Below, one piece after another: positions 25,234 through 63,580 of a stretch of DNA of 64,000 nt. Under the pieces are notes generated by a model. That model was not told the DNA's origin and did not search any database. It saw nothing but the letters and a program-made list of their open reading frames with translations. The position numbers were made by a program, and so were the translations under genes. The first letter of the stretch is position 1; each line of letters opens with the position of its first letter. The stretch is from Haplodiscus bocki (Eukaryota): positions 35,092,001-35,156,000 of the forward strand of contig OZ296659.1 of NCBI GenBank assembly GCA_965655095.1. Reading direction: 5' to 3'.

Positions 25234-25419
25234 TTACACAGATCGAGTGTTAATAATGAGCTTTGAGAAGTCGTTGACGATAGAACGACATTTGGGACAT
25301 TCCATTAACTCCACAGCACATGCCTCACACACTACCATACAATTGCAGGGCTGTAACGCAACAGATCGTTCTCGGAGTCCACAGCAGATACACAACACTT
25401 CTTGCCGACGACAAATCAT
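25234..25419 (-). CDS. unk: unkempt exon 13 (RING domain, stop)
   Basis: cttag|MICRRQEVLCICC...LQPCNCMVVCEAC...CPKCR...TAA. Confidence 0.88.
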   Translation of the reverse strand: MICRRQEVLCICCGLRERSVALQPCNCMVVCEACAVELMECPKCRSIVNDFSKLIINTRSV

Positions 25420-28400
25420 CTAAGTGAAAAAGCTCACTGCATTTTACATTCTTTATTTTCCGCTTTCCGCATTATTTAACATGTAGAAGGAAAATCATGC
25501 GCTGAACGCCGCCGTTGTTTACGTTCACATGCCAGTTGCACGAAAATCGTGCACTTTCGGTCTTCAAAATTTCTTCACTAAAAAGTAGCAAATTAACCGT
25601 AGAATGCGATTGAAATAGTAACATTTCTCCGAATCAAAATTAGGGCTTTTTGGAAAACACTTCTTTGAACCCCTTTTTAGAAAAAAAATTGAGAAATTCA
25701 AAATACGGGAGAATGTGTAAAGTTTGGTCTAGAAAACATGAAAGTGTTACTACTAGAAGTGAAAAACTTTCTACTAAAAGCTGCAAGGCGGAAAATATCC
25801 CTGTAGTCGTCGGGCGTCTCGTTTAACAAGTGGCCAAAACCCGCCTACGTTCGTGAATGAATGATTTACTGCATAGAGGCAATATACGGAGAGTTCGCGT
25901 TACCCGTCAGTCTGAGAGCGAGTTCACTCGTGGCGAATAATTTACCTAACAAGGTACAGAAAGCAAGCGCGCTCCTCATTTCAGAATAAAGGGGGGGGGT
26001 AGTACATTAAGAAGAATGAATTTTGTTCGAAAATAGGGATTTTCAAGAAATATTTTCATTCCAAACGATTCTACAGCAAATTCGCTACTTTTTCTCAAAT
26101 CGGTGCTGAAAAATTTCCAAACTCAAAATCGTGCAATATGGCCGAATTGTGCAATGGTCAAGTTTATGTGAAAAACGCACGTAGCAAGATAAATTTCCTT
26201 CGTCATAAAATATGGGCGGAAAATAAATAGTTCTAGTGTAAAGATAAAATTGAGTACAGCCAGTTTTCAAAAATGAAAAGTGGTTTTCCAAAGCTACATG
26301 GTGTACTATCGAATCTAACTGTTCGGGCAACTCGCTCACTGGCGGATAACCAAGTGGCGATTAATTGATACTTAAATGTTCTACCAATTGGCATAAAGAG
26401 ACGTACCTTCGCATGCAGAACAATTTTCTCAATTCAGCATTGTCTTCAAAAAATTGCAATTCTGATTGATCATCCACAGATCCAAAACTTTTGAATCTCA
26501 CAAAAACTCTTTTAAGCCCGAAAATTAACAACCAACGTAGAAACAGTTAAAGAAGAACTTACATTATCTATTTTGCGGATATCACACGATAGAATATCCT
26601 TGACTTCTTGAAGCTGATCTAAAGTGAGAGACTCCATCTCCATTTCAGGAATTGGCAAAAGAATCTGCTGTTCAAAGCAAGAGGTGGCATAAGTCGAGGA
26701 GTTGATGCCGGCAACAGCAGCACCATTGCTGACCTTAATGCCACTCGGGGCAGACAATAAATTAGTTGCAGAGCCACTTTGGGAGTAGGGCGCAGCACCC
26801 AACGTCGCTCCTCCGTCGACTCCCGCTCCTGAAGAAACTGACACTGCACCCGCTCGGATGTTGGCCAATAACGGTAATCCAGGGTCGTAGCGCAAAGTCT
26901 GGAAAAACCCCAAAAAATATACAAAAAGAAAAATGGAAGAAAAACAAACCGATGTCAGCGTTTATGCCTGAAAAGAATAAAATATGCCACCATCAGTTGA
27001 AAACTTGGGAATATCGTCCTTACACTGATAAAATAGCTTCGCAAAAATCGAATTTTCTGTTATCATCAAACTATAATGTTCACATGTAAAATAGAATTCT
27101 GGGACTTCCTGGTACAGTGCCGTTCAAATAGGAAAGACGCAATTAGCGAGAAGTTCCAAAGAATACATTTCCAACATTAATTTTCCAAAAAAATTTTTTC
27201 CAAAAATAATCCACTTCATGCAAACGTTAATGTTGTGTACAACTTGAGCCCGTACCAACGTAGTGGCCAAGTTGAGCCCTCACTGGCTCGAAACATCAAT
27301 TTCACAACTGTTTTTAGGCAACAAGATTATCTGAAAACCCCACCTCCATTAAATGATAGAAATCCGTTTACCACGGTCCAGTGGTAGCACATAAGAGACA
27401 ATGGTAAGTTTGGCTCTTTTCGAGGGAAAGCTTCAAAATTTTAGGCTTTCGAAAAAATCTGTTTCCAATTTTGCGACTATTTCCGCACAAAAAAAATTAT
27501 TGAAAAAATTCAAACGGAGCAAAAACTTACATGCTGTAGATTCCTTTTCATGAATGTTGGTTACATAGGGGCTGCTAAAAGCTGACTATAATTCACGATT
27601 TAACAATGACAACTTTCATTTTTTTGCTATACCAATGGAAATATTCAATCATGCGACTTCGAGACTTTTCTCGAAAGATATTCCAGCTGGATACTAAACG
27701 AATTCGGCTTTGATTTGCATCAATTCTTTCATAGCAAACTTTTCACAATTTATTATTAAAAATAGCATTACTTCATCGCAGGATGATTTTTTTCCAGAAC
27801 GCATCAAGCTAAACTAACTCCTGTACACCCAGTATTAGACGGCAGTTGCAACGTGCCTCCTGATCCAGGTCCATCTCTCAAATCTTCTCTGCTTGCTGAG
27901 TTACCATCGAAAGAGGAGGGATGAGAAAGAGGACTCTGTGATGAGGGAGAAGATAGAATGCCGTATGTGAAGCTACATCTGGCACCTGGGTAGTTAGAGT
28001 TTGACGTCATGGATGCCTGAAATCACAATCACATAGGTTCGGATCGAGCACTATCAAAGCGAACACTGATTCAACTTAGTCGAGACAATTTTTCTCCTGC
28101 TCCTTAATTGGTGTTTCGGTGCGTTTTTCCGAATGTAAAGTGACCACCCGGGTTGACGTCTCAGAGAATTTCAGCGCTGATCACCTCTGATTAAGGAATT
28201 ACAGCGCTGTATATTATTGTATTATTTCAGAGCAGCAAAATCAGCGCCGATTTTCTCTGGGACAGCACTGACTTTTATTGGATTCAGGATGAGATTTTTC
28301 AGTTGAATTTTGTTTTTTCGAAATATTTAAAGTAACTCAATTTCGAGGCACAAAACTCTGCATTTCAGCTCACATGATAATAATATGATTGTAATTCTGT

Positions 28401-43400: not shown

Positions 43401-46400
43401 TTTTTTTTCCATTTTTGAACCACTTTAAAAAATGTTTTCCAGCTAAGTTAACATTCAAAAAATTCACCTGAATATCCTGAAGCCACTGATATGTTTTGAA
43501 GCAAAAACTAATTTTGAGAAGTAAAAAAATCGAGATCCCAAAATAGAGATTTTTGAATTTTCATGTTTCAACATTAGATCTTGAAATTTGCAAATTTTAA
43601 AACTTCCATTCTATAGAAAATTTCTACATAACTTTGCTTTTAAAAGCTGTCAGTGGCTTTAGGAGATTTTTTCAGGGAAAAAAAATTGCGAAAAGTATTG
43701 TATAACACACTCAAAATTAGGCAAAATCAATAGAAATTGTCTCAAGTAGACCAATACTATTTGCGTAATTTTAATTAGCAAATGAAATTTCTCAAATTAG
43801 GTCTATTTTCTTGATGCGTTTGTTTTTCACACTACTGCATTTCGCATGTAGACGTCGCTCATTTCTGAGAAATCGATTTGTATTGCAGATTATTGATTTC
43901 TGTAATTGAATTTTTAATAGGTGGAAATTAGGACGTCATCCAACAAATTCGGTTGAGTGCTTCGGCCAAAAGACCACAAGTGAGGAACAAAAGAAAAAGT
44001 TCCACCAACCAGCAGTTTAGAAAAGCATGAAAAATCTAAAAGTACTAAAAGACCCCTCTTGACGTTTTTGCGGTCCCCTTGATACCCTGAAATTTTTTTT
44101 TCAAAAATCAATATATTCCGCAAGACCAAGGCTCCCCAACGAGTATTTCGTAACTTCCGGGTGGCGTCGGCTTGTTCCGTCTTCTAACGAAAAGTTTTGT
44201 ACTAAGCCGAATACGCCGGGAGCGGCTGAGACGGCAACGCTCGTAACGTGCACATTATTCGTTGGGGATTATCATGTTTTCTAGTCGACAAATTTGTCTC
44301 ACAGTATCCAAAATCTTTGTGAAGAGCCCCTACTTTGTACACGGAATGAGAAGGTCCGCAGCACGCTAAACAGCAATAAATGGTTTTATATGGTGGAGGA
44401 CTCTACAGTTCTTCATTTTCAGACCCTCGCGAAAAAAGGTGTCTCAAAAGTCGGTCTTTATTTCCATGAGCGCCAATTAAAAACAGTATACTTTCTACCG
44501 AACAAAACAGGCCAAGAACGGCCAAAATCGGGAATGGCCAAAGTCCGGGTCGTTCGGATGGCTCAAAAGACTCAACACAAACGCCAAGCATGTCATAAAG
44601 GAATGGCCTATAAACACGCATTTCTAAGGCTCTTTGTTAGAAAAATGCTTTAATGAACAATGAAAGTTAAATTTTCATCGATTATTTATTTACAAGTTAA
44701 GTATTTTCGCAAAAGAATGACAAAATGCATCATCCAACCGACATCGCGGATCCTCTAGGCTGTCATCATTTTAAGGAGCGCTGAATGGACCCAATTCAAC
44801 CGCCAGTTATAAAACGTTCCACGAACAACGCGAGAAAACATCAAAATTTCAATTTCAACTCAAAAAATTTCAGATTAAAAATCAACTAACATCTGAAAGC
44901 ATATACCGTGAAATCGATCATCGATGACAGAAATCACAGCTGTAGTTTTCCAGAAGGATTCCGAGTTGGAGTATCGAAATATGTCTATAATAAAGGCATT
45001 TTCGCTACTATAGGCCCATCAGGATTCCAGCTCCGATGTAAAAAAAAAACATATTTCATGGTAACCAAAAACGAGAACTCTGCTTCAAGTGGAACTCTAT
45101 CGATTGACACCGTGATTGCAGAAACAAGCAGGCCATGAGCAGAGGAAACAAGAGTTTGAAAATCGAAGCATGACAAGACTGACTGATTGCACTTTCTGGC
45201 ACTTCTGGTCATCAAGAAAACACTGCATGGAAGAAATTCTTTCACTAGTATAGCCCAAACAAGTAGAAGGCATTAGATCCAGACTTGAGAAGTGTAAATC
45301 AGTCAATAGTTACTGAGGAAAGCGAGTTTCAAAATCGAGATGAGTCCATGTTGCAAAAATTTTCGGCCATTCTGGTCCATCAGGATTCCAATGCACTGAA
45401 CAAAATCAAGATATTTTACTCCAACAATCCATCAACAAAAGTAAACTCTAGAGTGAGACGTTCGAAAGAGAAATCAAGTCAGTAGTTTTGGAAACACGAG
45501 TTCGAAAATCCATAACAGTGCATAACAAAAACAATAGTCATTTTCGCGCTGCCAAGACTTCAAGGCAGGCACGGAAAGGTTCGTTTTTTCAAATCACGTC
45601 AAGAAAAAGGAACTAGTCAATTTCGGCTTTGGTGGAAGGAATCAAGTCTAAGGTTCTGAGGAAATATGAGTTTGAAGATAGAAATTATTCAGTAGTGAAA
45701 GGATCTCGGCAATCTAGGACTATCAGGACTTCGAGGCAAGGTACAAAATCATTTTTTTTTCGAAACCCAGTAGTCCACCAAAAACGGAAAACTACATACT
45801 GACAGCTTGAAGCACGAAGTTGAGTCAATGTAATGGACAACCACGATTCCAAAGTCGGGAAAAAAAGTCAGACATGACAGCAGTTCTTTTGCAATTTCCG
45901 ACAACCACAATTCCTACGCAAAGATCAAAATGAATCAATCGTCACATACAAAATAGCCCTAGGAATAGAAAAACGTCAATTGAGACCTCGATGAAAGAAA
46001 CTAAGCCCGTAGTTACGGAGAAAAAACAGTTTGAAAAAACGGAAGAAAACAGTTTGAATCTCGGAAAGAATCAATATTATTGGCACAACTTCGAGTCCTC
46101 GGGCTATTAGAAATCCGAACCAAAGATCGAAAAGCATGATTTCACACTCGAATTGTCCTCTTTTACGTTTAATGTGAGCGATTGAAACCGTGATGGAAGA
46201 AAACAAAACTGGAGGTACAGACAAGCATGAATTCGAATCGGGATGAATCAATATTGAAAGCTTTATTCGGAATTTCCCATCAAGATCCTGGTTCAAGGAT
46301 CCGAATGTATGGTCTTTGAAAAGCATCCTCCTCTATGAATGTTAAGTTTTCGATTGAGACCTTGATTGAGAAAAAACCTGTAGATAGGGAGAAACATGAG

Positions 46401-48510
46401 TTCCATTGTCTGGATGAATCAAAACTATAATAAGCACTTTTCGGAAGTTTAGGACAATCAGATTTCCGAAGCACGGATCAAAAAATAGGAGTCTTCAGTC
46501 TTTATCCCTTATACGAACAAAACATTTTCGACTGACTTGATTGAATCTTTAGTTATGGAAAAAATTGAAACTGAATGTCGTGTAAGTCATAAGTAAAAAT
46601 GTTTGGAGCAATTTCAGACTATTCGGACTTCGACGCAAAGAATGGAAAAGATAGGCTTAGAATCGGACACTTCCCTAAAAGTATAAAATTTTCGATTGAG
46701 AACTTGACAAAAGAAAATAGGCCTGCAGTTACGGGGGAAAAGAGTTAGAATCTTGCGATGATACCAAAAGAAAAGCACAATTAGGAAATTTCGAACTATC
46801 AGTTATACGGACCAAGGATTGAAATAGATGATTATTCAATCAAATCCTCTTACACAATTGTCAGGACATTGATTGAGGTCTTGATTCAAAAAATCAAGAC
46901 TACAGTAAAGGATAAAATTGTTTGATTACGGAGCTCATATAACACCAATAGCACTATGTTGAGTTTTCGGAACATCAGGAGTCTGATGAAAGGATCAAAA
47001 CACATGATCATTCAATCGAACTTTTTCCTAACGTGTGAAGTTTTTGATTGACACCCCGCAGGAAGAAATAAGATTTGTAGTTGGTGTAGTTAGAGAGAAA
47101 CATTTCGATTACATGCATGAATAAAAAAACTTTTTTGGAATTTTCGGACTAAAATGATTGTGATGCAAGGATCGAAACTAATGCTTCTTTATTCGAAGAC
47201 CTTCTACAAGTCTAATGATTTTGATTGAGAAATCGATGGAAGAACTCGATCCTGTAGTTCACGTAAAACATGAGCTAGGAAATCGAGATGAACGAAATCT
47301 AAAAGCTTCATTTTGGAATTTTCGGACTATCAAGAATTTGATGCAAGAATCAAAAATAACTGTTTTACAATAGAATCCTTATTTACGATTATAACGCTTT
47401 CAAGTGAGACCCTGATGGAAGAAAACAACCAGTGGTTGTTAGCAATAAGGGGTTTCAGAATCGAAATTTATCGATGAGAGCACTTTTTGGAATTTTCGGA
47501 CAATCAGGATTGACACGCAGGGAACAAAACCATCGATTCGTCAAACTAGTACTCTTACACTAGAACCCTTTCGACTGAGAACTGGTTGGAAAAATTGAAC
47601 CTTGTATTTCTGGAGAAAAATGCGTACAACTTCAAAGAAACTCGATACCGATTGCGCTTTTTGGCATTGCCTCAATTTGAGGATCACAGAACGAAATGTT
47701 TCAACACCAACACCAAAACTTTGAAGTACACTTGTAATTTTTGACCCGAAAGAATTACGAAAGCGGAGAAAACTGCTGAGAAAAGGCTGAAACAAAAATT
47801 CAATTATTCACATCAGTGGTTACACTTTATCAGATTTATAGGCTTCTTTTTCGGCTGTAGAGGAAAATCAACAGAAAAAATTGCAATTTCTTAACAAATA
47901 CTGCTGAAAAAACTATTTGTTTCAGTTACATGGGATAACTCATAAATTTTGAAGAAGAAACCCACCCATCAAAAAACCTTGAATTCTGACGAAAAAACCG
48001 TTTTTTTCGCAAAAAAGGTTTTGTTCGGGGGTATCTAAAATTATATAGAAATAATGAATCGATAGCGGGATTTGAACGCGTTAGCTGTGGGATACCTAAT
48101 TGCAGTGCCACCTTCACATATGCATCATGCATTACAATAAAGATTCTGCAGACTGCATATCTGAGCGTCATGGGCAAAATCAGGAAAATGAAAAAAGTCC
48201 CAGTACTCGTTTGAAAATTTCCCTCCCGAAAAACTTTTAGGACGAAAAAAGAAAAGGCCATTCAAAAGACCCGTGGGCAGTTGAATCATTGCTACATGGT
48301 TCCATTCATACTGAAAAGAATATAAAAAAAAACAGAATTCAATTAACATCAAAACGAAAGGAAAAAAAATCTGTTTAAAAAAAGTTTAAAGGAGAAAAAC
48401 CAGAGAAGAACTGCCTATATTTGCTCATTTCAGACTGAAATTTTGCCAGGAGTCAGACCATCTGTGTTCATCCAAAGATCTTACCGCCAGCGATTAGCCC
48501 ATTCAGCCAT
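25234..48510 (-). CDS. unk: Unkempt-family CCCH zinc-finger/RING RNA-binding protein; 13 exons, 1036 aa
   Basis: join(complement): 48485-48510, 42568-42786, 41308-41481, 40576-40697, 37823-38088, 36809-37412, 36321-36475, 29962-30241, 29334-29759, 28969-29087, 27819-28016, 26563-26898, 25234-25419 = 3111 nt; all introns GT-AG with matching phases; six CCCH fingers with Unkempt linkers (YMSQFRVKQC, DTERKFHPRFYKT, NYKTQPC, KDRRRSP, HTRVEQQFHPDIYKTTKC), PVNIP motif, C-terminal RING. Confidence 0.9.
26563..26898 (-). CDS. unk: unkempt exon 12 (pre-RING helix)
   Basis: ttccag|TLRYDPG...MESLTLDQLQEVKDILSCDIRKIDN|gtaagt. Confidence 0.8.
27819..28016 (-). CDS. unk: unkempt exon 11
   Basis: tttcag|ASMTSNSNYPG...SPSSQSPLS...CTG|gttag. 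Confidence 0.75.
28160..28290. repeat. Short intronic repeat with recurring CAGCGCTGA-like palindromic units
   Basis: tcagcgctga, acagcgctgt, tcagcgccga and acagcactga within ~130 bp. Confidence 0.45.
28969..29087 (-). CDS. unk: unkempt exon 10 (absent from ORF track; SQPVNIP motif)
   Basis: ttttag|GMVNTKASQPVNIPRLSQ...PEDN|gttag; phase 1->0. Confidence 0.8.
29334..29759 (-). CDS. unk: unkempt exon 9
   Basis: tttcag|..ASQPPQL...LSVDLEDSLD...GPM|gttag. Confidence 0.8.
29962..30241 (-). CDS. unk: unkempt exon 8
   Basis: tttcag|TGGNPWFG...FEKRD...PLFYDSL|gtatga. Confidence 0.78.
30813..30885 (+). other. tRNA-derived (SINE-head-like) fragment in an unkempt intron
   Basis: A-box TAGTACATTGG (30820-30830), degenerate B-box GGGTTCCATTCT (30863-30874), AT-rich tail; acceptor stem does not pair. 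Confidence 0.4.
31150..31900. repeat. Intronic repeat with recurring TCTACAGCAAATTT(G/A)CCAC-like motif (also near 26070)
   Basis: Motif copies near 31181, 31275, 31589, 31718 and 26070. Confidence 0.5.
33595..33665 (+). other. tRNA-Cys-like pseudogene or SINE head
   Basis: 'GTAGAGCATACAACTGCAGCGCAAATGGTCCCAGG' parallels tRNA-Cys(GCA) GTAGAGCAT.TGACTGCAGATCAA.AGGTCCC.GG; B-box decayed. Confidence 0.45.
35185..36030 (+). repeat. Dispersed repeat family A, copy 3 (three internal sub-repeats)
   Basis: CATGTCTTTTCAGGTTACGTCATTTTGCTG-like units at ~35189, 35303 and 35803; 3' part matches 19690-19820. Confidence 0.65.
36321..36475 (-). CDS. unk: unkempt exon 7
   Basis: ttccttttcag| ...QPKKP|gttag; needed to convert phase 1->0; alternative in-frame acceptor at 36457. 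Confidence 0.7.
36809..37412 (-). CDS. unk: unkempt exon 6 (ZF6 + G/S/N-rich disordered region)
   Basis: ccacag|IYKTTKCHDYQQTGRCPRGVYCAFSH...|gttag. Confidence 0.9.
37823..38088 (-). CDS. unk: unkempt exon 5 (ZF4, ZF5)
   Basis: YILRNYKTQPC...CRQGFACPLYHNAKDRRRSP...CGYCHTRVEQQFHPD|gttag. Confidence 0.93.
40576..40697 (-). CDS. unk: unkempt exon 4 (ZF3-ZF4 linker)
   Basis: gtgtag|TPVIDIKEE...ENSKWA|gttag; phase 2->1; resembles the PVYDIRE...W linker. Confidence 0.85.
41308..41481 (-). CDS. unk: unkempt exon 3 (end of ZF2, ZF3)
   Basis: ttttag|CKYLHHNAGDTERKFHPRFYKTSIC...CPYAHGPSDL|gttag. Confidence 0.92.
42568..42786 (-). CDS. unk: unkempt exon 2 (ZF1, start of ZF2)
   Basis: ctacag|..YMSQFRVKQCPEF...CRHHKPYCCFFWH...CPDGD|gttag. 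Confidence 0.92.
45000..47540. repeat. Diverged ~175-bp tandem satellite (~14-15 units) in unkempt intron 1
   Basis: GGAATTTTCGGACTATCA..A...GATGCAAGGATCAAAA-like anchor at ~46268, 46441, 46610, 46783, 46960, 47136, 47314 and 47489, weaker copies back to ~45017. Confidence 0.7.
48485..48510 (-). CDS. unk: unkempt exon 1 (MAEWANRWR), 26-nt coding part
   Basis: ATG..TGG CG|GTAAG; phase 2 matches the exon 2 acceptor (G TAC ATG). Confidence 0.6.
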
Positions 48511-49612: not shown

Positions 49613-49770
49613 AGTAGTATGGTGTGAGCATAAGTGGGGGGGGGGGAGACGAGGTCTCCTACGGGGATTCGAACCTGCGCGGACGGAATGGAAAAGTAAA
49701 TACGGCCCGCGGTCGTATCCGCGGCGTCACGGGAGCTAGTATTCGGCGGACCGGAAATTAAAATCGTTCC
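49613..49770 (+). repeat. Maverick left terminal inverted repeat
   Basis: AGTAGTATGGTGTGAGCATAAGT-G11-AGACGAGG...GGGAGCTAGTA; reverse complement of 62308-62442 with about 7 substitutions outside the G-tract. Confidence 0.93.
49655..49736 (-). promoter_or_regulatory. tRNA-like Pol III type-2 promoter module in the left TIR, pointing toward unkempt
   Basis: B-box on the minus strand (plus-strand GGATTCGAACC, 49665-49675); A-box-like TGACGCCGCGG. Confidence 0.5.
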
Positions 49771-50689
49771 GCCGTTTGCAGATTAGCGCCAGAGAGATTT
49801 ATTATGCGTACTTAATTAGAGTAATTAGGCGAATGCACTGACTTTTCAAAGGTTGGAAATGAAAGAAACAATTATTATACCATGGTAATTATTGTTAAGA
49901 ACTATGTTTGCTAAAAGCCCGTCAAAGGATTATAGTTTGTGAAAAAGCTTATTCTGCTTGTTTAATGTCAGCTGTTACGAACGCTGAAAGATTGACCTAA
50001 GATTTTGATTCGACTGATAATCTAAGTTCAGTGAAGTTTACTGTGGTCTAAAAGAACTGAAATGAATAGAACTGAGAAAAAAATCGAAACTGCCTACTTT
50101 CTGTCAATTTTGTCTAGCTCAGTTGTCTTATGAAGTCTCTGGAACACGGGAAACCCTCCCAGCACCCCCCAGGCGCGGCCTGTAGTCAAGGCTAATCCAA
50201 TACACGATCGGTTTCTAACGAAAGTACATTGTGTTTCAAATGTTTGCTGTTCAGACCGTCGTGACTACGATACGTATTGGACTGATAAATATACATTCGA
50301 CGTTGCTTAAGCTCACAATTTAGCGAATCCGAAATTACAGTACTTCGAATTTTCAATTGGTACATTCGTTAAATCAACTTTTTTGAAAAAAAGTTCTTTG
50401 GAGTTCCTCAGCGAAACACGAGTGAAAAAAACCCTAGATTATCTCACAGAGCAATCCATAAATCAATGAAAAGGATAATTTATTTCAAGTTGAGAGTATT
50501 TTTGTATAAAATAATCCGTAGTATAGCCAACAAGGCACGATGTTTCTATTGGAACTCTTGTCCAGATGTTACAAGCTTTGCTACAATGTCTACTACTTTA
50601 CTTCTACAATTTGTATCCTGAAAATAAAGTACGCATTTTCTAAAACAGAGAACTAAATCATCAAACAATGGAAATATTGCTAAAACGTT

Positions 50690-51245
50690 GAAAAGTTGAA
50701 AAAAAAAAGCGTGGAAAAGTTGAAAAAAAATGCAAAAAATAAGAAAAAAGTGCAAAAAACTTGAAACAAAGCGAAAAAAGAGAAAGTGAAAAAGTGCACA
50801 AAAAGCGTCGAAAGGTTGTGAAAAAATCATAAAAAATCATAAAAAATATGCTTTGAAACAGTCGGAAAAAAGCAAAAAAATTGGAAAAAAGTGTAGGAAA
50901 GTGCTGAAAAACTTGAAAAAAGCAAAAAAAATGCAAAAAGTAAAAAAAAAAAGGTGCAAAAAAATACCAAAAAAAGTGCATATGAGTTGAAAAAAGCAGA
51001 AAAAAAAGTAAGCAAAAAAGGAAAAAAAGTGCAAAAAAAACTGAAAAGAAAATGCAAAAAAACGGGAAAAAGTTGAAAAAAAGTCCAAAAAAGTTGGGAA
51101 AAAGCTTCAAAGCGTTGCGAAAAAACATCAAGAAGTTGAAAACATTGCTTCTAAAAAAAACTGCAAAAAACTTGGAAAAAAACGTCATAAAGTTTAAAAA
51201 AAGTGTAGGAAAGTCGAAAAGGAGTGAAAAAAAGGTAGAGAAAAG
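50690..51245. repeat. A-rich low-complexity array (AAAAAAGT/GCAAAAA units) replacing the polB polymerase domain
   Basis: Near-continuous A-tracts separated by GT, GC or TTG; abuts the polB truncation point. Confidence 0.8.
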
Positions 51246-52763
51246 CTAGTAGTTCAAGAAGAAATCTGGTAACCAAACAGCGAGTGTTCATGTCACAAAT
51301 GAAAATGGGTTCAGAGATACGGTTGGAATGAACGGAAACGCTTATGGGAACATGTTTCCCAATGAAGGTTGCGGAGTCTGTACGATTACGAGAATGATCG
51401 TGCACGGTGATTGACTCAAAAACGAAGACAACCAGGTTTTTGAATGAGTAGTTCTCCACCTCAATATCCAGGTTTCTCATCTCAAAGGCAGTTTAATTCA
51501 ATTGGTATGGGCCAGTAGGATAGCGACGGATTGGACGTTCACTACAGCTTCTAATATGTCTCTGAAAGTTGAAGGAGCGAGACCAAAACTTATCGCAATT
51601 ACGGCAACCATACTTTTTCAGGAAGTTGTCAATGTTCTTCGTCCAGCACATGTGATTGTCAAATTGCAGCAAAGATATGGTGCAAGAGGAAAAAATTGCT
51701 AACTGATGAGAGAGTTCATCTATTAGGTTCTGCTTTTCATCTAAGCAAATAGAATAAACTTGTAGGTTCATTTGCACGATCTGCTCAACATCATGAATTT
51801 CAATCGGTAAATCACCGGTGAGATTTTTGCAGTCCCTTCCGGTTTTTGAAAGAAACTCCGATACTAAATATTTTGTCGAAGCAACGAGACCATCGCTACC
51901 AAAATTTTCAAAGCAATTGCACGAAACAAACATAAATTATAATGATAAGCTTTTTTATCGGAGTCAGAGAGGAATGTTTTGACTAACGGATGTCTAAGAA
52001 GAGCTTGAGGTAGCAATGCGTTTTGACAACCAAGAGGTACATCTGCAAGATGGAAAACAAAAACCATGAAATTAGTTAACGTGGTGAATTTCAACTTGGA
52101 ATTTGGACGCTGAGATACACATTGGTTGAATAAATCTTTCTGCTCTATTTTGTTCTTCAATTTGTCAAGATCTTCTTCGTTTTCCAATGTTAAAGGGAGC
52201 TGGAAAAGAGGACTGTTGCCAGCCGGATAAAAGTATCTATATTCTTGTGTTTCAACAAGGTCATGGAGAACGAATCCCAAGGATAGATTGATTTTGACTG
52301 CACAGTTTAACTCATTGAAGATTTCGGTTAGCTTTTCGTCATTGAAAGTTGGACTGTATTCTGTTAAGCGAAAATTGTAAACAGTTTTTTTTCTAAACTC
52401 GAGTTTTGAGTCTACCAGAAAATGCTGCACAGAGCGTAGTTCCTGGAGGAAGTGTGGGTCAGAACATTGGAACGAATTCAAGTCAACGTTTTCGGGTGAA
52501 TCTCGTCGATTACAACCATGAGCAACGCGTTTGTGATAGCTGAGTCTATTAAGGGTTAAAAAAGGAAGGTCGCATAGAGTACATTGAAAGTTTGCCTTTG
52601 ATAATCTCATGGAATGTTTGCCTACCGAATGACAAGCCAATTTTTTAGATGTGGCGAATGATGCAGTGCACTCCGTGCAGGCGAATTAATGAGATTTGTG
52701 ACACACAAAATTGGATTTTTCGAACCATTTGGAACAAACAATACACAGTTTTTTGTCAGACAT
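51245..52763 (-). pseudogene. Protein-primed DNA polymerase B, N-terminal part only (zinc fingers, terminal-protein-like region, ExoI)
   Basis: C2H2-like fingers (CIVC.., CTEC..H..H, CTLC..H..H), 'KINLSLGFVL....EYRYFYP', 'RPNSK', 'YNLCLFRAIA', 'HMCW...YGCRNC...FQRHIRSC', ExoI-like 'VVFVFESI' (DFES), 'HVPISVSV'; frameshifted, truncated at ~51245. Confidence 0.8.
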
Positions 52764-52832
52764 TATTGGAGTGAGGAGGATAGATCAGAGATAGTTCGCA
52801 GGAATTCTTGGCGCTTTTCTAATTTAGGAAAT

Positions 52833-53356
52833 TTAACTAATTTTCATCAATAAATCGGCTGTTGGACCTGATTGAGAAAGAGAAAGTTCACTCTGCCTGC
52901 AGAAAGTCCGTTTTGTTCTGAATTTTTTCCGTAGGAGTCGTTTTTTCGTGAACCTCAGATTTGTGAAGACTGGACATTGAGAGATCTGTTGAAATCGATA
53001 TCTGATAAAAGTTTTTGGAACATGAAACCTTGAATTTGTATAATACAAGGGAAATCATTTTTGAATGTGGTGAATAAGCAATCAACGATTTGGTATAAGA
53101 AATGGCAATTCCGATAAATACTGAAAGAAGACAAATCGATTGATTCGTCGTGAAAAAGGAGATGGTAATGACAATTTGGGACTTTGCAAAAGTCAGCACG
53201 ATGTTCAGAGACAGCGAATTGTTTGAAAAAATGAAGACTCGAAGGAAATTTTGGTAGGCAAATAAGCAAAGAGTTTGTTATACTTTTCGAAGAATGAAGG
53301 AAAGAGGTCCAAACTCCCACGTGGGATACTAAATTTTGAGTTTTCGACTGTTTCAC
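52833..53356 (-). pseudogene. Maverick ORF of unknown function (Cys/His-containing), frameshifted
   Basis: Overlapping ORFs 52955-53356, 52888-53199 and 52833-53048 between polB and the protease; CxxxxC and CxF motifs. Confidence 0.35.
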
Positions 53357-53676
53357 TTTAACGTAGCTTTGAAAATGGATTTTTCACTCGAATTTTAACT
53401 TATGTTCTAATTAACTGCAAAATGGAGACTGCATCAATTTCTCGAAGAATATCATTCGTTGAGAAATAAATTATGTAAATTTTGTTCACAATTTTGCAGT
53501 CAATTGGGATTTTTGCCGCACATTCGCAAGGTGGCGTCTTCGCACAACATCATTTGCAACGAGTAATCCGATTGGTTGACAGTTAATTTATGTAGATTTT
53601 ATTCAATATTTGAAAATTTGAATTTCTTCAGGCCTGAGGAGACATTAGCTCGTATAACAACAGCTGCTGCAAACGA

Positions 53677-54566
53677 ATGAAATTATTGACAATTGAATCT
53701 CACTGCAAGAAACATATAAATTTGTTATCCATTTTGGAATTCGTTTACTTTTCACTCCAAATTCTTTTTTTATCTGGATTCCATTTCTATTCATTCTCCA
53801 ATTCCTTTCAATCTGCAGAGAAAATGCCAGTTTGTAAGGTACAGATAGACGAGTTTCGTGAGCGAATTTTGTACTTCTTCCTGAATCCAGACAGCAGCAA
53901 AGTTTATTTTCTGGGGCAATCGTTGAGACAGACAGTGATATTGTCAAAAACTGTGTGATACCAGAAACTTTATTCCATATGCAACATACTTGGTTGGGAT
54001 CCCGTTTCAGTCATAATCTGATGAATGGATCGTCGGTGCATGTAAATTCCGACGTAGTCTTTACCACGTATTATGCGAACGCAAATCTTCAGCCCGCCTA
54101 CCAAATGTATATAGTGGATGATGTTGCAAGCTAATGTTTGTAATGAGGCAAAAACTTGTAGCCTTCCAACTCTCTCGAAAAGAAGTTCGACCAAACTTCG
54201 AGCATGAACGTCAGGAAAGAGAAGCAGTATAAATTTTTTGGAGAGTGGATGCTAATGACCTGGAAATCGGTAGTCCTTCCATTTTCCCCGAGGAGGTAAC
54301 CAACAACTGCGGTCCTGGCTACGGACCTCCCTTGGGTGAAAACTGGCCGAACAGTCATGATGAACAAGCCAAGGTGCTGGTTCCGGGAACACCGGAACAA
54401 TCTATGCCTACCAACCAAACACTTCCAACAACGCCAATTCTCAGAGGCAGTAGCGATCGCACTCGGTTTCCTCAGGCTCCTCGTCGAAATCGAACAGAAG
54501 AAGCTTCAAGAAGAATTTCGTTTGAAGAGACGTGGGATTTTTGATTTTTCTCCTCATAACTTATGA
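53677..54566 (+). pseudogene. Plus-strand Maverick accessory ORF(s) of unknown function
   Basis: ORFs 53677-53958 and 54245-54544 (Pro-rich) with coding-like sequence between; convergent with the protease. Confidence 0.35.
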
Positions 54567-54759
54567 TAAAATGAGACTATTTTTTATTGAAGTTGTTATG
54601 TATCCAGTTTCACAAAGTGAATTCAATTTTTGTTGAGAATTTTCTTTCTACTTTTGTTTTCTTTACATAAGAATTCAAAAGACGAACTTTTATTGAGGAG
54701 ACAAAAATTTCAAAACAAACATACAAATTTTTCCATTGTTACGTAGATATACATTCTAG

Positions 54760-55153
54760 AGTGTCTCCGCAAAGAAACGTAAGATAAAGTTGGCATCACA
54801 TTGTGAAAGTTTGAAAACAGCGAAAATGCGGAACAAATACAATATAGGCCTTAAAAAGGTTCTCTTTGTAATTCTACACGATTCAGAACCTTGAGAGCAT
54901 CGAATTGATTCAAAACTATGTTGCGATGAAACATCGGCTCATTCCGAAGTGAGTGTCCAACATAAACAATTCCATCTTTCTTGGCTACCATTACCCAATG
55001 TGAACCGGGTCTTTTACTGCTTCCGGTGTTGCATATAAAAATCGAATCTGCAGGAAGAATTTCGGGAATCATATCAGCAGGGAGGGATCCTATATACTTG
55101 TGTTTCAGAATTCCAATGCTGGAAATTATTTTAGGAAGTTGATCATTATCCTT
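54760..55153 (-). pseudogene. Adenain-like cysteine protease (Maverick PRO)
   Basis: 'KYIGSLPAD', 'FICNTGSSKRPGSHWV' (NT.....GxHW), 'LQREPF*GLYC' (Q....CG.YC, catalytic Cys codon lost). Confidence 0.85.
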
Positions 55154-56358
55154 TTACCACAATAGTCCCAGTTTTGTCAATGAAAATAGCCGAAAGCCGC
55201 TCTTTCTGTCGCTGAAGGAAGAGGTGAAGTAAAATACAATTCCATTCTCATACTGGCTGCGACAACGTCAGGTTAATAAATCTGAGCATTTGCTTCTTGA
55301 GTAGTGAGATCAAACACTTGAACGAAGTGCTCAGGGTAATCTTCCAGAGGGATGCCAGGACCATCTTCATCAAACATTAAAGCTCTCATGGTAGTGATGT
55401 AGGACTGTACATTATCTGTGGTATCCAAATCCACAACAACGTGACTACCTCAAACTATCCGAATTGATCGTAGATTAAATTTTTGGTAATGGAAAGGGTT
55501 AGTTTTGAGTGAACCAGTGAACGCCGTGTTGGTGTTCAAAGCAATCGCCAATCGTCTTATGGGAGCGTTGAAGATGTTTTCATGAATGTATTGATTCTGT
55601 CCATTAGGTATTCCAAATGTTTTCGCTAACACTTCGGAGAAATTATACCGAGCTGGACGAAGTTGCAACGAGCTATGCAAGTCTTTGTAAATGCGATCCT
55701 CCATTACAACTTGTTGTGGAAAGAGAGACGCTTGGAGAATGGAACATCAGAATTTTTTGTTCCGATTGGTGATGATGTACATATTTGGTCTGGAGCGAAA
55801 CAATCGTAAGCAAATTTTGACGTTGGGGAGTAAGAAGTTACCGCAAGTGAAAACATCAATGGATAACTTCTCATATAAGCAAATTTCCTCAATTTTCTTT
55901 GCTTTACGAGAGAGGAAGGGTTCGTCTCCAAACGATGCCGGTTCTTTCTCGTACGTATAACCTTGATATGAGCAAATAGAACTCATGGTCCCTTTCGTAT
56001 TAGACAATTGATGAACGCTTTGAGAGCACAGAATCCATTGGAAGTATAAACTTGTTCGTTATTAAAATAAACCTCACAATTTGAGAAGAGAGTGCATTGT
56101 AATATTGGTGAAAGTATCACATCATCAGCAGCTTCCAATGTTACGTTTCCTTCATTAAGTTTAACTTTCGAAAATAGGAAAGTTTCCTGCAAGTCTATCA
56201 TCATGTTTCTGTCCGATTCGAACTGGAAATCCAGAGAAGATTCATCAAGGAATTCATGGGATAATATTTTCATGTATTGGAACGTTCAATTGGTTCATAA
56301 TTGGTAGTCTATCGAATAGTTCCAGGGAAGAGTGTGTCATTGCTCGAGCAGTTGACAT
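55150..56358 (-). pseudogene. Major capsid protein (double jelly-roll, hexon-like)
   Basis: 'SSLELFDRLP', 'LDFQF....MIDLQETFLFSKVKL', 'LFSNCEVYFNN', 'LSIDVFTCGNFLLPNVKICLRL', 'NIFNAPIRRLAIAL..N.AFTGSLKTNPFHYQKFNL', 'FDLT'; frameshifted. Confidence 0.85.
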
Positions 56359-56364
56359 GACTAG

Positions 56365-56721
56365 GATATGTTTTTGAAAAAACCCCCGACTACGCCGTTG
56401 GTTTTTTCTTGATTTAATGACTTGGATCGTTTCTCGCTTTTTTTGATTGCTTTCTTTCCCTCCTCCTAGCCGCTTTCTCACGGTTCTCTTTGCAGTCCGT
56501 TTAGTTGCCTTCTTGATCGAGGATCTGCCAGTGATCACTTCCCCCAGTTCCGGAAGAGCAGCCTCTAATGCATCCTTCCCTAGTTTCTTTGCAGTGGATA
56601 GAACATATTCCCGAAAAAGAGCAAAAGCTGTTCTTGCAATTTTACCGGCTAAAGCTCCCAACCCCCTTCCTCTTTGTCGACGTGTACTTTTAAAATATTC
56701 GAGGTTTGTATAACCAGCCAT
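56365..56721 (-). CDS. Basic core/DNA-condensing protein (adenovirus pVII/pX-like Maverick protein)
   Basis: 'RRQRGRGLGALAG..R...L....K.LGK..L', K/R-rich, 'RLGGG'; the current ORF reads through into the MCP N-terminus (to 56254). Confidence 0.7.
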
Positions 56722-56768
56722 TCAGTGGGAGTGTTCGAAAGAAAATGAATTGAAAAGTAGCAGTGTCA

Positions 56769-57565
56769 CTATTTCTGCATCCTCCTGAAAAGGAGAGATA
56801 AGTGGGTGTATCCAAGTGATAAAAAAGGAAGTAGTTCTCCGTTGTGTGATCTCAAATCAATAGATATTGAATGAAATGAGTGTTTGAGGACTCTCCAAAA
56901 TTCAGGATTGTTGAAAGATTTGGATTTTGGTCCTTGTGTGGTTTCAAAAGGAGGTTTATCAATTGGAAAACTTTTCAACACAGGAGGTTTCGCATCTCCC
57001 AAAATTGTATTATCGATAAAAATCAGTATAAACAATTATTGCATGGAATCGTTGAATATCATGAACAAACGGAGAAGTTGAAAAATTATTATCAATCTCT
57101 AGGCTCTCATCTGAAGGCATGAAGCCAAAAATATGTCGTTAACCTCGACTGTCCAAAAATATTTTCACACCAGGCATCGTTTTGATCAAGATTCGTTGAC
57201 TAATGGTATCAACTCAAAATCAAGAAAGTTGCATTCCATTTTGTGGAGGTTGCGAAAACGCCAGCCAGCGAACACCTTTGCGAACATAGAGGAGGAGACA
57301 AAAGATTTTATTGTTGGGTAGTAGCCAGGCGAATGTTTGTAAGTTTCTGAATCTATAACTTTCCCTTCTTTTGTGACAATAATTTCAAAACTTCCTTCCG
57401 TGATATTAGAAAACTTCGAGAAAAACAGATTTCAGTCAGAGCCACTTCCCATTCACCCTCCAGATATATTTGATAGGGTAAGAAGTTCGTGAAGTCTGCA
57501 ATTGTGTTCTGAGGGTAAAGTCTGGACGACGCGGAGGAATGCAACTCAACACTAAAGGTTTCCAT
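56769..57565 (-). pseudogene. Minor capsid protein (penton, single jelly-roll)
   Basis: 'FSVELHSSASSRLYPQNTIADFTNFLP..IYLEGEWEVALTEI' and C-terminal 'ILGDAKPPVLKSF...FHSISIDLRSHNGELLPF....LLFR'. Confidence 0.88.
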
Positions 57566-57584
57566 CGCTGAATGATTGAACTAA

Positions 57585-58529
57585 TTAAAAAGGAAGACTT
57601 TGTTTGGAAAGTTCTTCCGGATAAAACTTGCCGAAGATTTTGTCCCCATTCAGCTCTTCCAGTTCATACGAAAGTCTAGGTGTTGTTGTTTTGATGTCTA
57701 TAGCTTTGAAGATCTCGTCAGTCAACTGAGGTTTATATCCCTCAGAGAACGCAGTGGAAACTTTCGCGATATGAAAAAATTCTCCTACTTTCAATGAAGG
57801 ATGTCTGTTAGTTTTCATCGACTCTGTATAAAATTGTCATGAAGTCCCCATTTTGTACTTTCTCAGGTCGTAAACCTGTGAATCGGTTGAGGCGAATGTT
57901 AAGAGTTCTCGTAAAGTTTCGAACTTCCGGAAGATAGCAATCGGTTCTTCTTTCTTCCAGATACTTGTAATCAGAGACTTCAGAGATCTGATGGCACGTT
58001 CAGCGAAACAAACTTTAGTCTCGCTGAAAGTATGGTATATGTGAATTCCAGCATCTGGACAGAAATCTCAAAAATCTACAAAAAATTCCTTCCCTCTATC
58101 GACTCACAATTTTTTCGGAGACATAAGGTTCTTACCTTGGTCCGAACACATACGGATGGGAGCTGCTCTGGTGGTTCCTGCGTTCGTATTCATCGGTTGT
58201 AAATGGACAAAGCGAGAGAATACTTCCAAAGATACCATGAGAAACTTCGTGTCGGAATTCCAAGAAGAAAGTTTGTCAACTTGTGCTAAGTCCATACACC
58301 ATATATCATTGATAAAACGTGCTTCAACTTGTAGTCTTGGAAAATTACGTCGTCGATTTCTGAATTTCGTATAGGATGGTTTACTCAGGAGGAACTGACT
58401 GACTTTTACACGAGGTAGACCACTCAATTTAACTACATTATTCAATGATCCAAAAGCTGCTGGTCCACTCCTGTACAGTTTAATCAACTTGAGTCTTTCA
58501 GAAAGAGAAAGATAGCCAACTGTTGTCAT
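57585..58529 (-). pseudogene. Maverick retroviral-like (rve) integrase
   Basis: 'LYRSGPAAFGS', 'RRNFPR...INDIWCMDL', 'EVFSRF', 'VDRGKEF', 'KVCFAERAIRSL', 'KVGE...FSEGYKPQLTDEIF...YEL.ELNGDKI.GKFYPEEL'; frameshifted. Confidence 0.9.
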
Positions 58530-59001
58530 CGTCTGTTAAAGCTACAGTGTTAGACATGTAGCTCTGTGGAAAGTTCAGAGTGTACAGTATTATGGAACAC
58601 TTTGGATCAAAGCTCCCATTTCTTCGTTTCAAGTTGTGAATAAAATCCCGTTCATGCACTTCAGTTTCAACGTTGTCCACAACATTTGTTTTATTGAGGG
58701 AGAAAGTTATAGCTTTGTTTTCAAAAAGTTCGGAAAGGATTTTCTTGGCATTCGAATCTTTCCTAAATTCATTGAGAAGGTCTTCTTTCAGCCGTTTATT
58801 CTGTGTCGGTGGATCACCGTCTTTCCTATTTTGTTTCAAAGGTTTAATTAAGTTCTTTCCAATATAGCTGGGGTCAATCGGTTGCTTGCGTTTGAAGAAG
58901 CGAATCCTAGCGTCCTCAGGCTCAGTGTCAATTGAAGGAAGTTGTAATGTTCCCTGTTCCCATAGGTGGAGTGGAATTAGTACAAACTTATTGTTTTCCA
59001 T
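58498..59001 (-). CDS. Conserved Maverick protein upstream of integrase (unknown function), 167 aa
   Basis: Open ORF with the typical 'KFVLIP' N-terminus, between ATPase and integrase. Confidence 0.6.
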   Translation of the reverse strand: MENNKFVLIPLHLWEQGTLQLPSIDTEPEDARIRFFKRKQPIDPSYIGKNLIKPLKQNRKDGDPPTQNKRLKEDLLNEFRKDSNAKKILSELFENKAITFSLNKTNVVDNVETEVHERDFIHNLKRRNGSFDPKCSIILYTLNFPQSYMSNTVALTDDDNSWLSFSF

Positions 59002-59216
59002 GTTCTATCGATTCTGAGAGTTTTCTTAATACAGCTTTACCAACAAGGTTCAGGAGGTAGAGTCCTTTTTGGGAAACCAGTAGGAAACGGCGGGCTTTAC
59101 AAGATGTGTTTTTCGAAATCAGCTTTCTGATGAGGTTTTGCAACCGATGAAGTTTAGTCTTCTCAACAACTTTGAGATTTCTCTGTAAGAGATTTTAACA
59201 ACACTCTCAGAGAAAT
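59002..59216 (-). pseudogene. Small basic Maverick ORF after the ATPase
   Basis: 'KLISKNTSCKARRFLLVSQKGLYLLNL' resembles the small K/R-rich Polinton protein (..kr..L.Q.G..l). Confidence 0.4.
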
Positions 59217-59961
59217 CTAAGGAAATCTTTGGAAAAAAATTTCAAGAAAATCCACTGAAATTGAGTGCTGGAAGTTGGAAAGAGCTCTAGAGTAAAGTAG
59301 TCCAGATTTTTGATCATTCATCTGCGTTACTCTTGACCTACTGCTCGGTAAAAAGAATTTAGTCGGAAATGAAGTAACATCTGTAGAGTAACGCAAAAGA
59401 TCGTTTGTTTTGGGTGATAAATCAATCATTAAATGCCCATTTGGAAGCGATGTAGCATGAGCATACCACTTCCGTAGAGTGTTCCCCAATCCAAGTTGTT
59501 TTCCCAGTAAATCAATTTGTTGAACATCGCGTGGTGACTTGAAGAGCACAATGTGTGTATTTTGCAACTCAGTGTCCCTCCCATTTGCACTTTTATGAAA
59601 CAAATTATGTTTTATATACATACAACTGAGTTTCCGATGTCTTCCTGCAATAGCTAGTTTCTCGAATTGTTTAGATCTAGAAATTTCATCACAAGAGCCG
59701 TCGAAAATGAGTATAGTTTGTTCCATCATTCGGAAGGTTCTCGAAGTCAAAGTCCAGACTGCCAGTGAATTCAATATTGCGTATTTTTTTTTGCATTTCA
59801 CCGTACAGTTTCTGGAAGTATTGATAAAATTAGAAAATTTTGGCGAAAGCTGGGACAAAAGCTCGCTTTTTCATTTGGAAAATTAAATGTGATTTTCCAG
59901 ATGCTGCTGGTCCAACCCTGGACATGAACACTCGATCTTCTTTTGGGATAATTTTGTTCAT
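59217..59961 (-). pseudogene. A32/FtsK-like DNA packaging ATPase
   Basis: Walker A 'VGPAASGKS' in the frame starting at ATG 59961; Walker B 'ILIFDGS'; 'GRHRKLSCMYIKHNLF', 'NTHIVLFKSPRD..QI', 'GHLMIDL.PKT..LLRY'; stop and frameshift near the 5' end. Confidence 0.9.
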
Positions 59962-60236
59962 TTTTGAACCAATATCTTGGAATAGGAAGAAGAAAACCCA
60001 CCACACTCGATAACAGCGCTACCCAAACAGTTCTTTCCTCGCAAGTTCTGGAAAGAACAACAAACTACGGAAGTAAGGATCAGAATAAAAACTAAAAGAC
60101 TTTGAAATATAAGTAAACTCACTGATCGAGAACACTTCCGTCCACATACGCTCCAAGGCGGACGTTCTTCGCTAACAGCGTTGAAAACTATCTCTTCAGC
60201 AAGATTTTTTGAAAGTCGATTCGACAGTTTTTGCAT
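59958..60236 (-). pseudogene. Small putative membrane protein of the Maverick
   Basis: 'WSVCGRKCSRS' followed by hydrophobic 'LLIFQSLLVFILILTSVVC'; a second hydrophobic segment 'VGFLLPIP' lies in another frame. Confidence 0.45.
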
Positions 60237-60293
60237 ACTTAGCGATAGTGTCCGACTGAAATTTATCTTTGTTCATTTGAAAATGACTTGAAC

Positions 60294-62200
60294 TTATTCT
60301 CGGTCTTGGTAAGAACATACATCGAATGATTTGAAAAAATTACGATCACCAACTTTCAGGAAGCAACAGTAGAATACGCCCGTGATATGTCCAAGGATGC
60401 CTGTGTTCAATAGTTCGGGAGAGTGTGTTCCCATTACGTAAATGTAACCGGGTCCGTCATTAGAGTTTCTCTTCATAAAACCAGAAGCATTGTGAAGCAC
60501 CGCCTGCATCCGTAAAAATTTTGAGAAAGAATACGTTCGAGTCGAGAGTCATCCACTCCAATCAGACCACCGAAAGGAGACTTCACGTTAACACCATACA
60601 AGTCAATATGAGGATTGATACATTTACAAGCAGCGAAGAAGTAATTTTGCTTTTGGAAATTTTAGTAAACGTTGGATCTTAAGTAAATTCCTTCTCCAAT
60701 GAAGGAATGTCCTGTACACGCATTATAAAACAGATTCGATCAATATTCGGAGGGATTGTCATTGAACTCAGTCGCACTCACCCTTCCTGCAAATTCACGA
60801 ACCGTGGTCGATTCTGCAGAGGAAAGAAGTGCAATTTTTTAGGTGATAAACCTTACACGACTGTAAGTGAGCAAACATATACGATACTGAGACAACTTTG
60901 GATAAAAATCTATCGTCAACTTTCTTTTTCCGTTTCTAATAATGAATGAACGACAATCGTTTGCTTTATGGAAATCAGGTAACGATATCAATTCCAGCGA
61001 AGTTGGTTTTATTAGTGTCCCGCAACTACTTTTTTGGTATCCTTTGATTTCGATATGTCCTCCACTATGGCCTATACTGAAATCAATTTCTGTTAGTTCA
61101 TTTGGTATCATAATTTTTGAGATCTGAAATGAAGAAGAATTTCACAAGTTTAATTGATTTGGAAGAATGTGACAATAAACAAACATCAATTCCAAGTATT
61201 GAGAAAGAAAACTATTACACATGACTTGAAGGAAGAGAGGTAGATATAGTCAGTTTTCTGTTATTCTGTAAAGTTTCCCACACTAAAATCTCCATTATCT
61301 CCACGTGAGTTTTTCGATCTCTGATGTTTACAACTCTTCCACGTTTGAAGCTGTCTGCAACTCCCGATTATAAGAAGAGTTTCAATTGAATAAATGAACG
61401 ATTGAAATTTCCTCTATCATATGCACTGAAAGATGCACATACTTTTCATCTGATTGTTTCGCATAACTCCCAGAACTTGTCACAAGTTTCTCGGTCCTCC
61501 ACAGGGGTTGGATACTTTGCCAATTGGAATTGTCTTGTTGTACCCATTTCCTCCCTCTTCAAGGACTCTTGCGATTCCAGAAAGGTCAAGAACCAATTCT
61601 TGGCTTCACCAGGAACTTCATCAACAGAAGATAGAACTCTCCGCATTTCCCAAATCGAAAGAATTATCAACTGATGAAACTTCATCTGTCAAATATTCTC
61701 TTTGAACCAAATTTCCACATGAACCCAATTAGTTGGAGCGTTCCCTGAAACTTCAACCTTGGGAAGTGAAATTCTCAAAACTCTTACTGGTACACAGGAA
61801 AACTCCCAGCATTTTTGTGATGACTCTGCATCTGCTAAAAATCCCTTCTGACGATAATTGTTCAGCACAGAAGTTCCAAATGTTGTCTTGACTTCAGTAT
61901 TATCCATCAAGGAGGAAATTGTCGCTGAGTTTTCACTCAAGAGGTCCTCGAAGCATTGAAACAAATTGGTAGAATAGTTTGGAGAGTTGTTCGGAATTGT
62001 AGCACTCGAGAAGTCTACTGATGATGGTTCCGGATTTTCTTTATTTGCTCGTCGTTCGTTTTCCTTGTTTTTCTATGAATTTTTAAGTTTCCTTCTCATT
62101 ATCAAATTCAACTTTTCAAGTTTCCAGTGAAGATAGAACAATTTTGTTTCTGTAAGTTTTCAGCTCGTAAAGAATAACAAAAGTCCTGGAAGAGAAAGTC
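60294..62200 (-). pseudogene. Cluster of decayed Maverick accessory ORFs of unknown function
   Basis: Co-oriented fragments 61689-61964 + 61446-61685, 60839-61111 and 60294-60509 inside the TIRs. Confidence 0.4.
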
Positions 62201-62279
62201 TTCGTGCAACCAATGGAGTCGCGATTTGCTTTTCTCAACAGCGACACGTCAACGATTCCGATCGGGTGTAACGACCGTA

Positions 62280-62442
62280 CGGTGACCGATTAATTCCCAG
62301 TGTCGATTACTAGCTCCCGTGGCGCCGCGGATACGACCGCCGGCCGCATTTACTTTTTCACTCCGTCCGCGCAGGTTCGAATCCCCGTAGGACACCTCGT
62401 CTTCCCCCCGCCCCCCCACACTTATGCTCACACTATACTACT
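62280..62442 (-). repeat. Maverick right terminal inverted repeat
   Basis: ...CACTTATGCTCACACTATACTACT ending at 62442; mirrors the left TIR. Confidence 0.93.
62313..62395 (+). promoter_or_regulatory. tRNA-like Pol III type-2 promoter module in the right TIR
   Basis: A-box-like TGGCGCCGCGG (62320-62330) and perfect B-box GGTTCGAATCC (62374-62384) preceded by tRNA-Ser-like CCGCGCA. Confidence 0.55.
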
Positions 62443-63514: not shown

Positions 63515-63580
63515 ACGAAGTGACGCTAGGATAAATATATCTCAAGCAGTAAATCCGGGTTCGAATCCGTGATTTGCCAT
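63515..63580 (+). other. B-box-containing (tRNA/SINE-like) fragment
   Basis: GGTTCGAATCC at 63558-63568; no convincing cloverleaf. Confidence 0.3.

Follow-up and report, generated by a model that had tools for sequence, protein, structure and literature searches.

Both terminal inverted repeats (TIRs) of a decayed Maverick/Polinton element carry part of a host tRNA-Ser gene with a perfect polymerase III (Pol III) B box, and this piece is common to about a thousand Maverick ends of three distant families in the same genome. We consider there to be an even chance that the captured B box was kept by replicating elements as a putative site for host TFIIIC, mostly without an RNA product. Little is known about the cis elements in Maverick ends and the host factors that they use, and the captured B box names both a candidate host factor and its site.

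The window element and its terminal module

The window (the whole 64,000-nt stretch of DNA that was analysed) contains, at 49613..62442, a decayed and internally deleted Maverick/Polinton of what we call family A, recognized by inverted arms with AGTAGT ends and by 87-88% nucleotide identity to fuller copies of 15-18 kb. The left TIR (49613..49761, plus strand) and the right TIR (62290..62442, minus strand) each form an end cassette, composed of the terminal motif, a G tract, the tRNA-Ser piece and an A-like segment. They are ~150 bp long, start with AGTAGT at 49613 and finish with ACTACT at 62442, and share 86% gapped identity over 155 columns; the best family-B cassette is 96% identical to the right one. 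TIRs that start with AGTAGT are a Maverick/Polinton hallmark, and the flanking 6-mers, with four of six letters identical, look like a decayed target duplication. In the parts of the published description used here, known Mavericks have AGTAGT ends, a 6-bp target duplication, TIRs of 46-1447 bp and lengths of 12.7-24.6 kb, and share integrase, ATPase, protease, polymerase and capsid genes (PMC8097293).

Judged from its reading frames, the window copy is dead, because its ATPase, integrase, probable capsid and protease genes are broken and only the first 502 of ~1420 polymerase codons are left. These core genes all lie on the minus strand. The A32-type packaging ATPase (59223..59961) matches Pox_A32 with E=0.0024 and is 84-90% identical in amino acids to a sister copy that reaches E=1.3e-5, and the retroviral-type integrase (57588..58520) is 73% identical to a sister copy with an rve match of E=3e-11; both Pfam families score above the cut-off in the sister copies, to which the window pieces are 73-90% identical. 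A putative adenain-like protease (54803..55150) shares 77% of its residues with a sister ORF, another sister giving Peptidase_C5 at E=0.0017, below the cut-off. The putative capsid gene (55189..56358; 53-80% amino acid identity to a sister ORF) encodes a probable major capsid protein, the lead being that the sister's Atlas neighbours, at a score of 0.98, are clusters in which 22-30% of members carry DJR-like_dom. The probable protein-primed DNA polymerase (51265..52763) is reduced to its N-terminal third, equivalent to residues 1-502 of a 1421-aa sister ORF. The polymerase ORF carries a DTDS motif, and in the sister copies it had no match in Pfam, PHROGs or PDB; here the lead is a family-B homologue near Atlas clusters (score 0.92-0.93) with DNA_pol_B_2 in 14-37% of members. 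The probable polymerase ORF at L071:1789-5808 has a Vsr/DUF559-like nuclease segment near residues 845-915 (weak scores), and an A-rich low-complexity tract occupies window positions 50664-51245, where the C-terminal part is missing. Elsewhere, the window has decayed tandem repeats at 13380-14100 (units ~26 bp) and 45885-47540 (units ~176 bp).

Read outward, the right TIR presents GCTCCCG (62313-62319), an A-box-like word (62320..62330), a T5 run that could act as a Pol III terminator (62354..62358), CCGCGCA (62367-62373) and the B box (62374..62384, GGTTCGAATCC), all on the plus strand, and a C tract (62404..62417, plus strand) separates the tRNA piece from the terminal motif. In the left TIR, the B box lies at 49665..49675 on the minus strand, also as GGTTCGAATCC, with a T4 run at 49692-49695, the A-like word at 49719..49729 (minus strand) and a G tract at 49636-49646; the length of this tract varies among copies. 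The two perfect, outward-facing B boxes reported in the first-pass annotation were confirmed, as was a perfect CCGCGG-N6-CCGCGG hairpin in the left copy. The single A-box mismatch given there, at A14, applies to the right copy; the left word, TGACGCCGCGG, has two departures from the consensus. The module is also, as stated there, not a tRNA: ARAGORN calls none at the ends, no cloverleaf with a paired acceptor stem was found, and an Rfam search of both window TIRs returned nothing at E<=10. Perfect B-box words occur three times in the window where 0.03 are expected, a number reached in 0 of 100 shuffles, and the GWTCRANNC core, perfect at both window ends, is intact in 75 of 95 copies. The third perfect word (63558-63568) sits in the host flank within an old dispersed repeat (24 scored matches), probably a tRNA-type SINE, whose 5' part has no similarity to the TIR module.

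Origin, copies and nested termini

The letter-by-letter match shows that the B-box segment derives from a host tRNA-Ser gene, as had been proposed. The piece in the window (62367..62393, plus strand) covers variable arm, T arm and acceptor strand; CCGCGCA (7/7) and the B box (11/11) agree with the host tRNA-Ser(AGA) at all 18 letters, and 8 of the 9 acceptor-side letters that follow are changed. A second allele spans the same three parts and agrees with tRNA-Ser(AGA) at 26 of 27 letters; the other host tRNA types, of which few were sampled, matched at 17/27 letters or fewer. Family C keeps another part of the tRNA-Ser variable arm, with a 4-letter gap. An exact 25-letter tRNA match at L069 was considered as a fresh capture and dropped, since a CpG change explains it equally well.

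Exact-word searches of the eukaryotic host assembly (1.5 Gb) found the terminal word 959 times, the B box 642 times with the window's acceptor side and 211 times with the tRNA-like one (the second allele), the A word 370 times and the family-A junction 48 times, with 0 hits for reversed-pattern controls. The tRNA piece occupies a fixed place, ~60-70 bp inside an AGTAGT motif, and every non-tRNA locus inspected lay inside a Maverick TIR, which bears out the view that it belongs to the TIRs and is not a free SINE. When loci were chosen without the terminal word, in four sets of 30 that overlap, all fell within Maverick ends (4/30 in the last set had a decayed terminal motif, recognized by eye only), and no dispersed SINE copy with its own body and tail was found among them. 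Two tRNA-arm patterns matched 10 and 8 places, all of them host tRNA-Ser genes or TIR copies. The terminal word had 0 matches in metagenome contigs and eight in viral contigs, none of the eight being followed by a G tract or B box. Integrase searches recovered none in viral contigs and six short metagenome contigs (1-3 kb), and 2263 homologous proteins were found as protein sequences without DNA context.

The idea that the module sits, as a rule, at the replication end found little support in a survey of 100 copies of the terminal word, the first to be listed and all on one contig. TIR-type repeats lie outside the AGTAGT motif in 97 of these. The other three comprise a copy whose outer terminus is 288 bp further out, an unclear case and a single true end. 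The AGTAGT cassette is therefore internal to a longer TIR, behind an outer terminus, in 98/100 sampled copies, and the window layout is the minority, a proportion to be read knowing that the terminal word misses some family-A ends, which make up roughly 5% by junction count. Elements of families B and C truly end at another AGTAGT motif, ~400-1100 bp further out, with exact target duplications at the outer ends in several family-B pairs. In family A, the inner motif is itself the integrated end: eight pairs were tested, and exact 6-bp duplications flank five of the six with unique flanks; two further left/right pairs also read with a 6-bp target duplication. The inner motif is 92% conserved and the outer one 86%, among 41 copies chosen by their B box.

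The cassettes, of ~150 bp, were likely traded repeatedly between families, because they are 94-98% alike between families whose integrases are 47% identical. By best match, a family-B counterpart at this level exists for 20 of 21 family-A cassettes; families A and B are about as distant in their polymerases (48%), and families C and B share ~70% nucleotide identity. Both acceptor-side alleles are present in all three families. Hybrid ends were also found, in which family-B outer repeats and the cassette are followed by family-A subterminal sequence (L271/L272, L277/L278, L295, L300, L005). A nested terminus and exchange between such distant families suggest that Maverick ends are modular, which matters for annotation and dating.

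Other structures were seen at these ends. Family-B outer ends (for example L059, L173, L108, L181, L106) contain a fold-back at ~+35 to +115 from the outer AGTAGT, whose arms co-vary between subfamilies with at least six pairing arm sequences and which probably forms a hairpin of single-stranded DNA at the true end; it was matched in 69 of 217 end-like hits, and family-A ends are without it. At L079-L081 (G000 C1 52.70-52.72 Mb), a family-B end forms an inverted duplication of 99.5% identity that extends past the terminus into the flank. A foldback element was considered at this locus and dropped, the arms running past the terminus and pointing to a host rearrangement or an assembly artefact. 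An AT-rich Maverick of a distant family, with AGTAGT ends, is nested inside a family-A element (L082-L085, G000 C3, ~8400-27100 of the joined stretch) and seems to carry a second copy of its own terminal motif.

Conservation of the B box and a putative TFIIIC site

The expectation that the B box be more conserved than its surroundings stood when the box was compared with the tRNA-derived flanks and fell short in a paired-end test of selection. Departures per column number 5.1 in the seven invariant B-box columns versus 11.3 and 17.1 in the two flanks derived from the tRNA (99 of 100 copies, selected by the terminal word alone; rank test p 0.007), figures that come from copies that are not independent and from flanks whose acceptor-side change could be one or few events. 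The sole frequent change within the box (A/G) falls on degenerate position 59. Among 13 hand-picked subfamily representatives, mean identity is 86% for the B box, 59% for the acceptor side, 78% for the variable side and 69% for the outer end. A B box that is better conserved than its flanks fits a TFIIIC site, and the sequence is consistent with an extra-TFIIIC site, although cassette exchange alone can make families look conserved.

Elements with a left and a right end allow changes shared by both ends to be separated from private ones. The 17 pairs retained showed 0 shared changes at the seven invariant columns and 10 at 16 flank columns, with 3 and 21 private changes, respectively. The contrast of shared with private changes (0:3 versus 10:21) was not significant (Fisher one-sided p 0.34); a Poisson test that assumes independence gave p 0.013. 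These 17 came from 23 pairs, five being dropped for containing the same end twice and one for an indel misalignment, and with all 23 pairs there are five shared changes on invariant columns. Three pairs have a broken box at both ends (L099/L100, L106/L107, L118/L119), all of the same-end-twice kind and without a clean target duplication.

The intact box is the commonest state both in the old family C (~0.18 terminal branch length) and in the young families A and B (97% between copies). A manual count of family C found 46/74 copies canonical at three free positions and 28/74 broken, which is the expectation at ~15% decay. Lineage-level loss was considered for these broken boxes and dropped on finding them scattered on long end branches of the tree. 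Neutral decay fits family C because of this scatter and because two probable ends of one element (L308, L309) differ in box state. These patterns are consistent with a box that, after insertion, decays like neutral DNA and would not be preserved by the host, and it is suggestive that the box is kept while elements replicate and lost once they are dead. The roughly one thousand dispersed B boxes could act on host chromatin, dead copies losing them at the neutral rate.

Under the explanation that we favor, an ancestral Maverick would have acquired the 3' portion of a tRNA-Ser gene from its host, beside a copy of its own terminal motif, and replicating elements would have kept the B box as a candidate TFIIIC binding site. 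We infer that recombination carried the cassette from family to family and that replication placed it at both ends. TFIIIC sitting at each end would enclose the integrated element, acting as a chromatin boundary; alternatively, it would hold the terminal DNA accessible to proteins of the element itself. In fission yeast, two repeats in inverted orientation, IR-L and IR-R, carry B boxes around a domain of ~20 kb and are bound by TFIIIC without Pol III, and those are host loci with binding demonstrated and five boxes per repeat, whereas the Maverick ends are mobile and have one box each, a candidate binding site (PMC7474672, in the part consulted for the comparison). Repeats are carriers of extra-TFIIIC sites in a nematode as well, according to the portion of that report used here (10.1101/813642).

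The closest competitor, which we hold to be possible but unlikely, is that a chance capture placed the tRNA piece next to a working inner terminal motif, and that the piece is carried along in a block-exchanged cassette with an inert B box. The non-significant selection test and the pairs broken at both ends agree with this, as does the occurrence of both alleles in all families, which makes block exchange real. One allele also retains the acceptor strand, for which TFIIIC has no known requirement, and an unrelated AT-rich Maverick in the same genome (integrase 28% identical) had no B box in the 1 kb of one end that was scanned. Passive carriage is, however, harder to reconcile with multi-copy lineages in which both flanks changed and the seven invariant box positions did not, and the probability of keeping 26/27 letters is 0.07-0.03 at 15-18% neutral change. 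The idea of a retained TFIIIC site can be extended to a more ambitious and somewhat more doubtful proposal, in which Mavericks would use host TFIIIC as an end cofactor through a portable 150-bp cassette that serves as inner repeat in long TIRs or as true end in short ones, is traded between families with no more than half of their protein sequence in common, and insulates or primes the element.

A possible RNA product, related systems and targeting

The first-pass annotation had also suggested a small RNA like the adenovirus VA RNA, which now seems unlikely. A narrower proposal, a short Pol III gene like those of bovine leukaemia virus (BLV), with A box, ~45-nt transcript, terminator and B box, would concern only the copies with an A segment, the window's family included, and we regard it as improbable. 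Several features speak for it. The distance from A to B box is 54 nt in the TIR and 53 in the host tRNA-Ser; the 5' segment matches the tRNA-Ser 5' half in register at 19-21 of 39 letters, a level seen in no more than 1 of 2000 shuffles, register and length being of our choosing; 35 of 40 copies have a T run between the boxes, at about +42 (T4 in 32, T5 in 3); and BLV, in the part of the report drawn on, initiates despite an inter-box terminator and a loose A box (PMC12498455). Against these stands the A word itself. The spacing fits an A box TRGYNNARNNG 30-60 nt upstream of the B box, but A14 is missing and position 14 is never A in 64 variants. Only 40/100 copies have the word; the family-C copies that have diverged most lack it, and in three young elements it has been overwritten, at five ends in all. 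It also matches the TIR's own GCGGATA repeat, as an inverted unit, at 13 of 14 letters in L301, and the unrelated host tRNA-Arg agrees with the 5' segment at 19/39 letters as well. The whole 5' segment aligned inconsistently to family-B repeats, and the origin of this A-like part is ambiguous between a tRNA-Ser half and a TIR repeat. The B box without the A box is the common denominator, because the A word is absent or overwritten in some lineages.

Folding offers no help to an RNA product. No fold signal was seen for the predicted 46-nt product (mean z -0.08 over 60 of 64 variants), a result in which the per-sequence z-scores alone carry weight, the consensus fold having used unaligned sequences. 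A long, stably folded Pol III transcript was likewise not found, with z of -0.16, +0.78 and -0.38, the first two being those of the window copies, neither of which folds better than its shuffles. The adenovirus VA RNA is internal, long and strongly folded. With it and with the BLV miRNA cluster, the module shares A and B boxes and a DNA-virus-like genome, and BLV also has a terminator between the boxes, but BLV makes hairpins, whereas the Maverick module shows no fold signal and is sited in the TIR (PMC12498455, same part).

Other elements offer analogies for the architecture of the ends. Sleeping Beauty has IR/DR ends with an inner copy of the terminal motif that stays uncut, and the adenovirus ITR places a host-factor site a few dozen bases inside the end. 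Both are analogies only, since the inner motif of family A became the cut end and the host factor would be TFIIIC. A precedent for the capture comes from Helenus and Cassandra, non-autonomous LTR retrotransposons of the TRIMp3 group that also have host small-RNA gene sequence (tRNA or 5S) in both terminal repeats, with the box motifs kept and tRNA function absent, as stated in the sections of these sources used here (PMC10886601, 10.1101/2023.07.14.548913). Those elements are small, use an RNA intermediate and have a promoter that makes the genome, in contrast to the Maverick, an autonomous DNA element with inverted repeats, outward boxes and a poor or missing A box. The defining TRIMp3 features (direct LTRs, primer site, polypurine tract, length <1 kb) are likewise lacking in this 13-18 kb element with inverted repeats, integrase and polymerase. 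With the Maverick, a large DNA element that replicates itself joins the small LTR retroelements as a setting for tRNA-promoter capture in terminal repeats. Among the titles and abstract openings listed in literature searches, none reported Pol III boxes in Maverick TIRs. The account of Maverick/Polinton TIRs cited above makes no mention of tRNA or polymerase III, and its portions considered here contain no nested second terminus (PMC8097293).

The weakest alternative, in which the piece would direct integration towards Pol III genes or, on the displaced strand, pair with tRNA-Ser as a primer, is very improbable. In its favor, the strand that reads inward is the complement of the 3' region of tRNA-Ser, and TFIIIC-guided targeting exists in other elements (PMC3159450, as far as the part used describes it), but the last letters of mature tRNA-Ser do not pair, priming would run only ~45 nt to the motif, and the insertions are not beside tRNA genes, so that the targeting aid once suggested is disfavored. 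On 222 partly overlapping end loci, ARAGORN made three calls: one stray call outside a TIR, and two that were spurious and fell on the TIR itself. The host tRNA genes for Ser, Lys and Arg lie in long tandem arrays (L061-L063, L203-L232).
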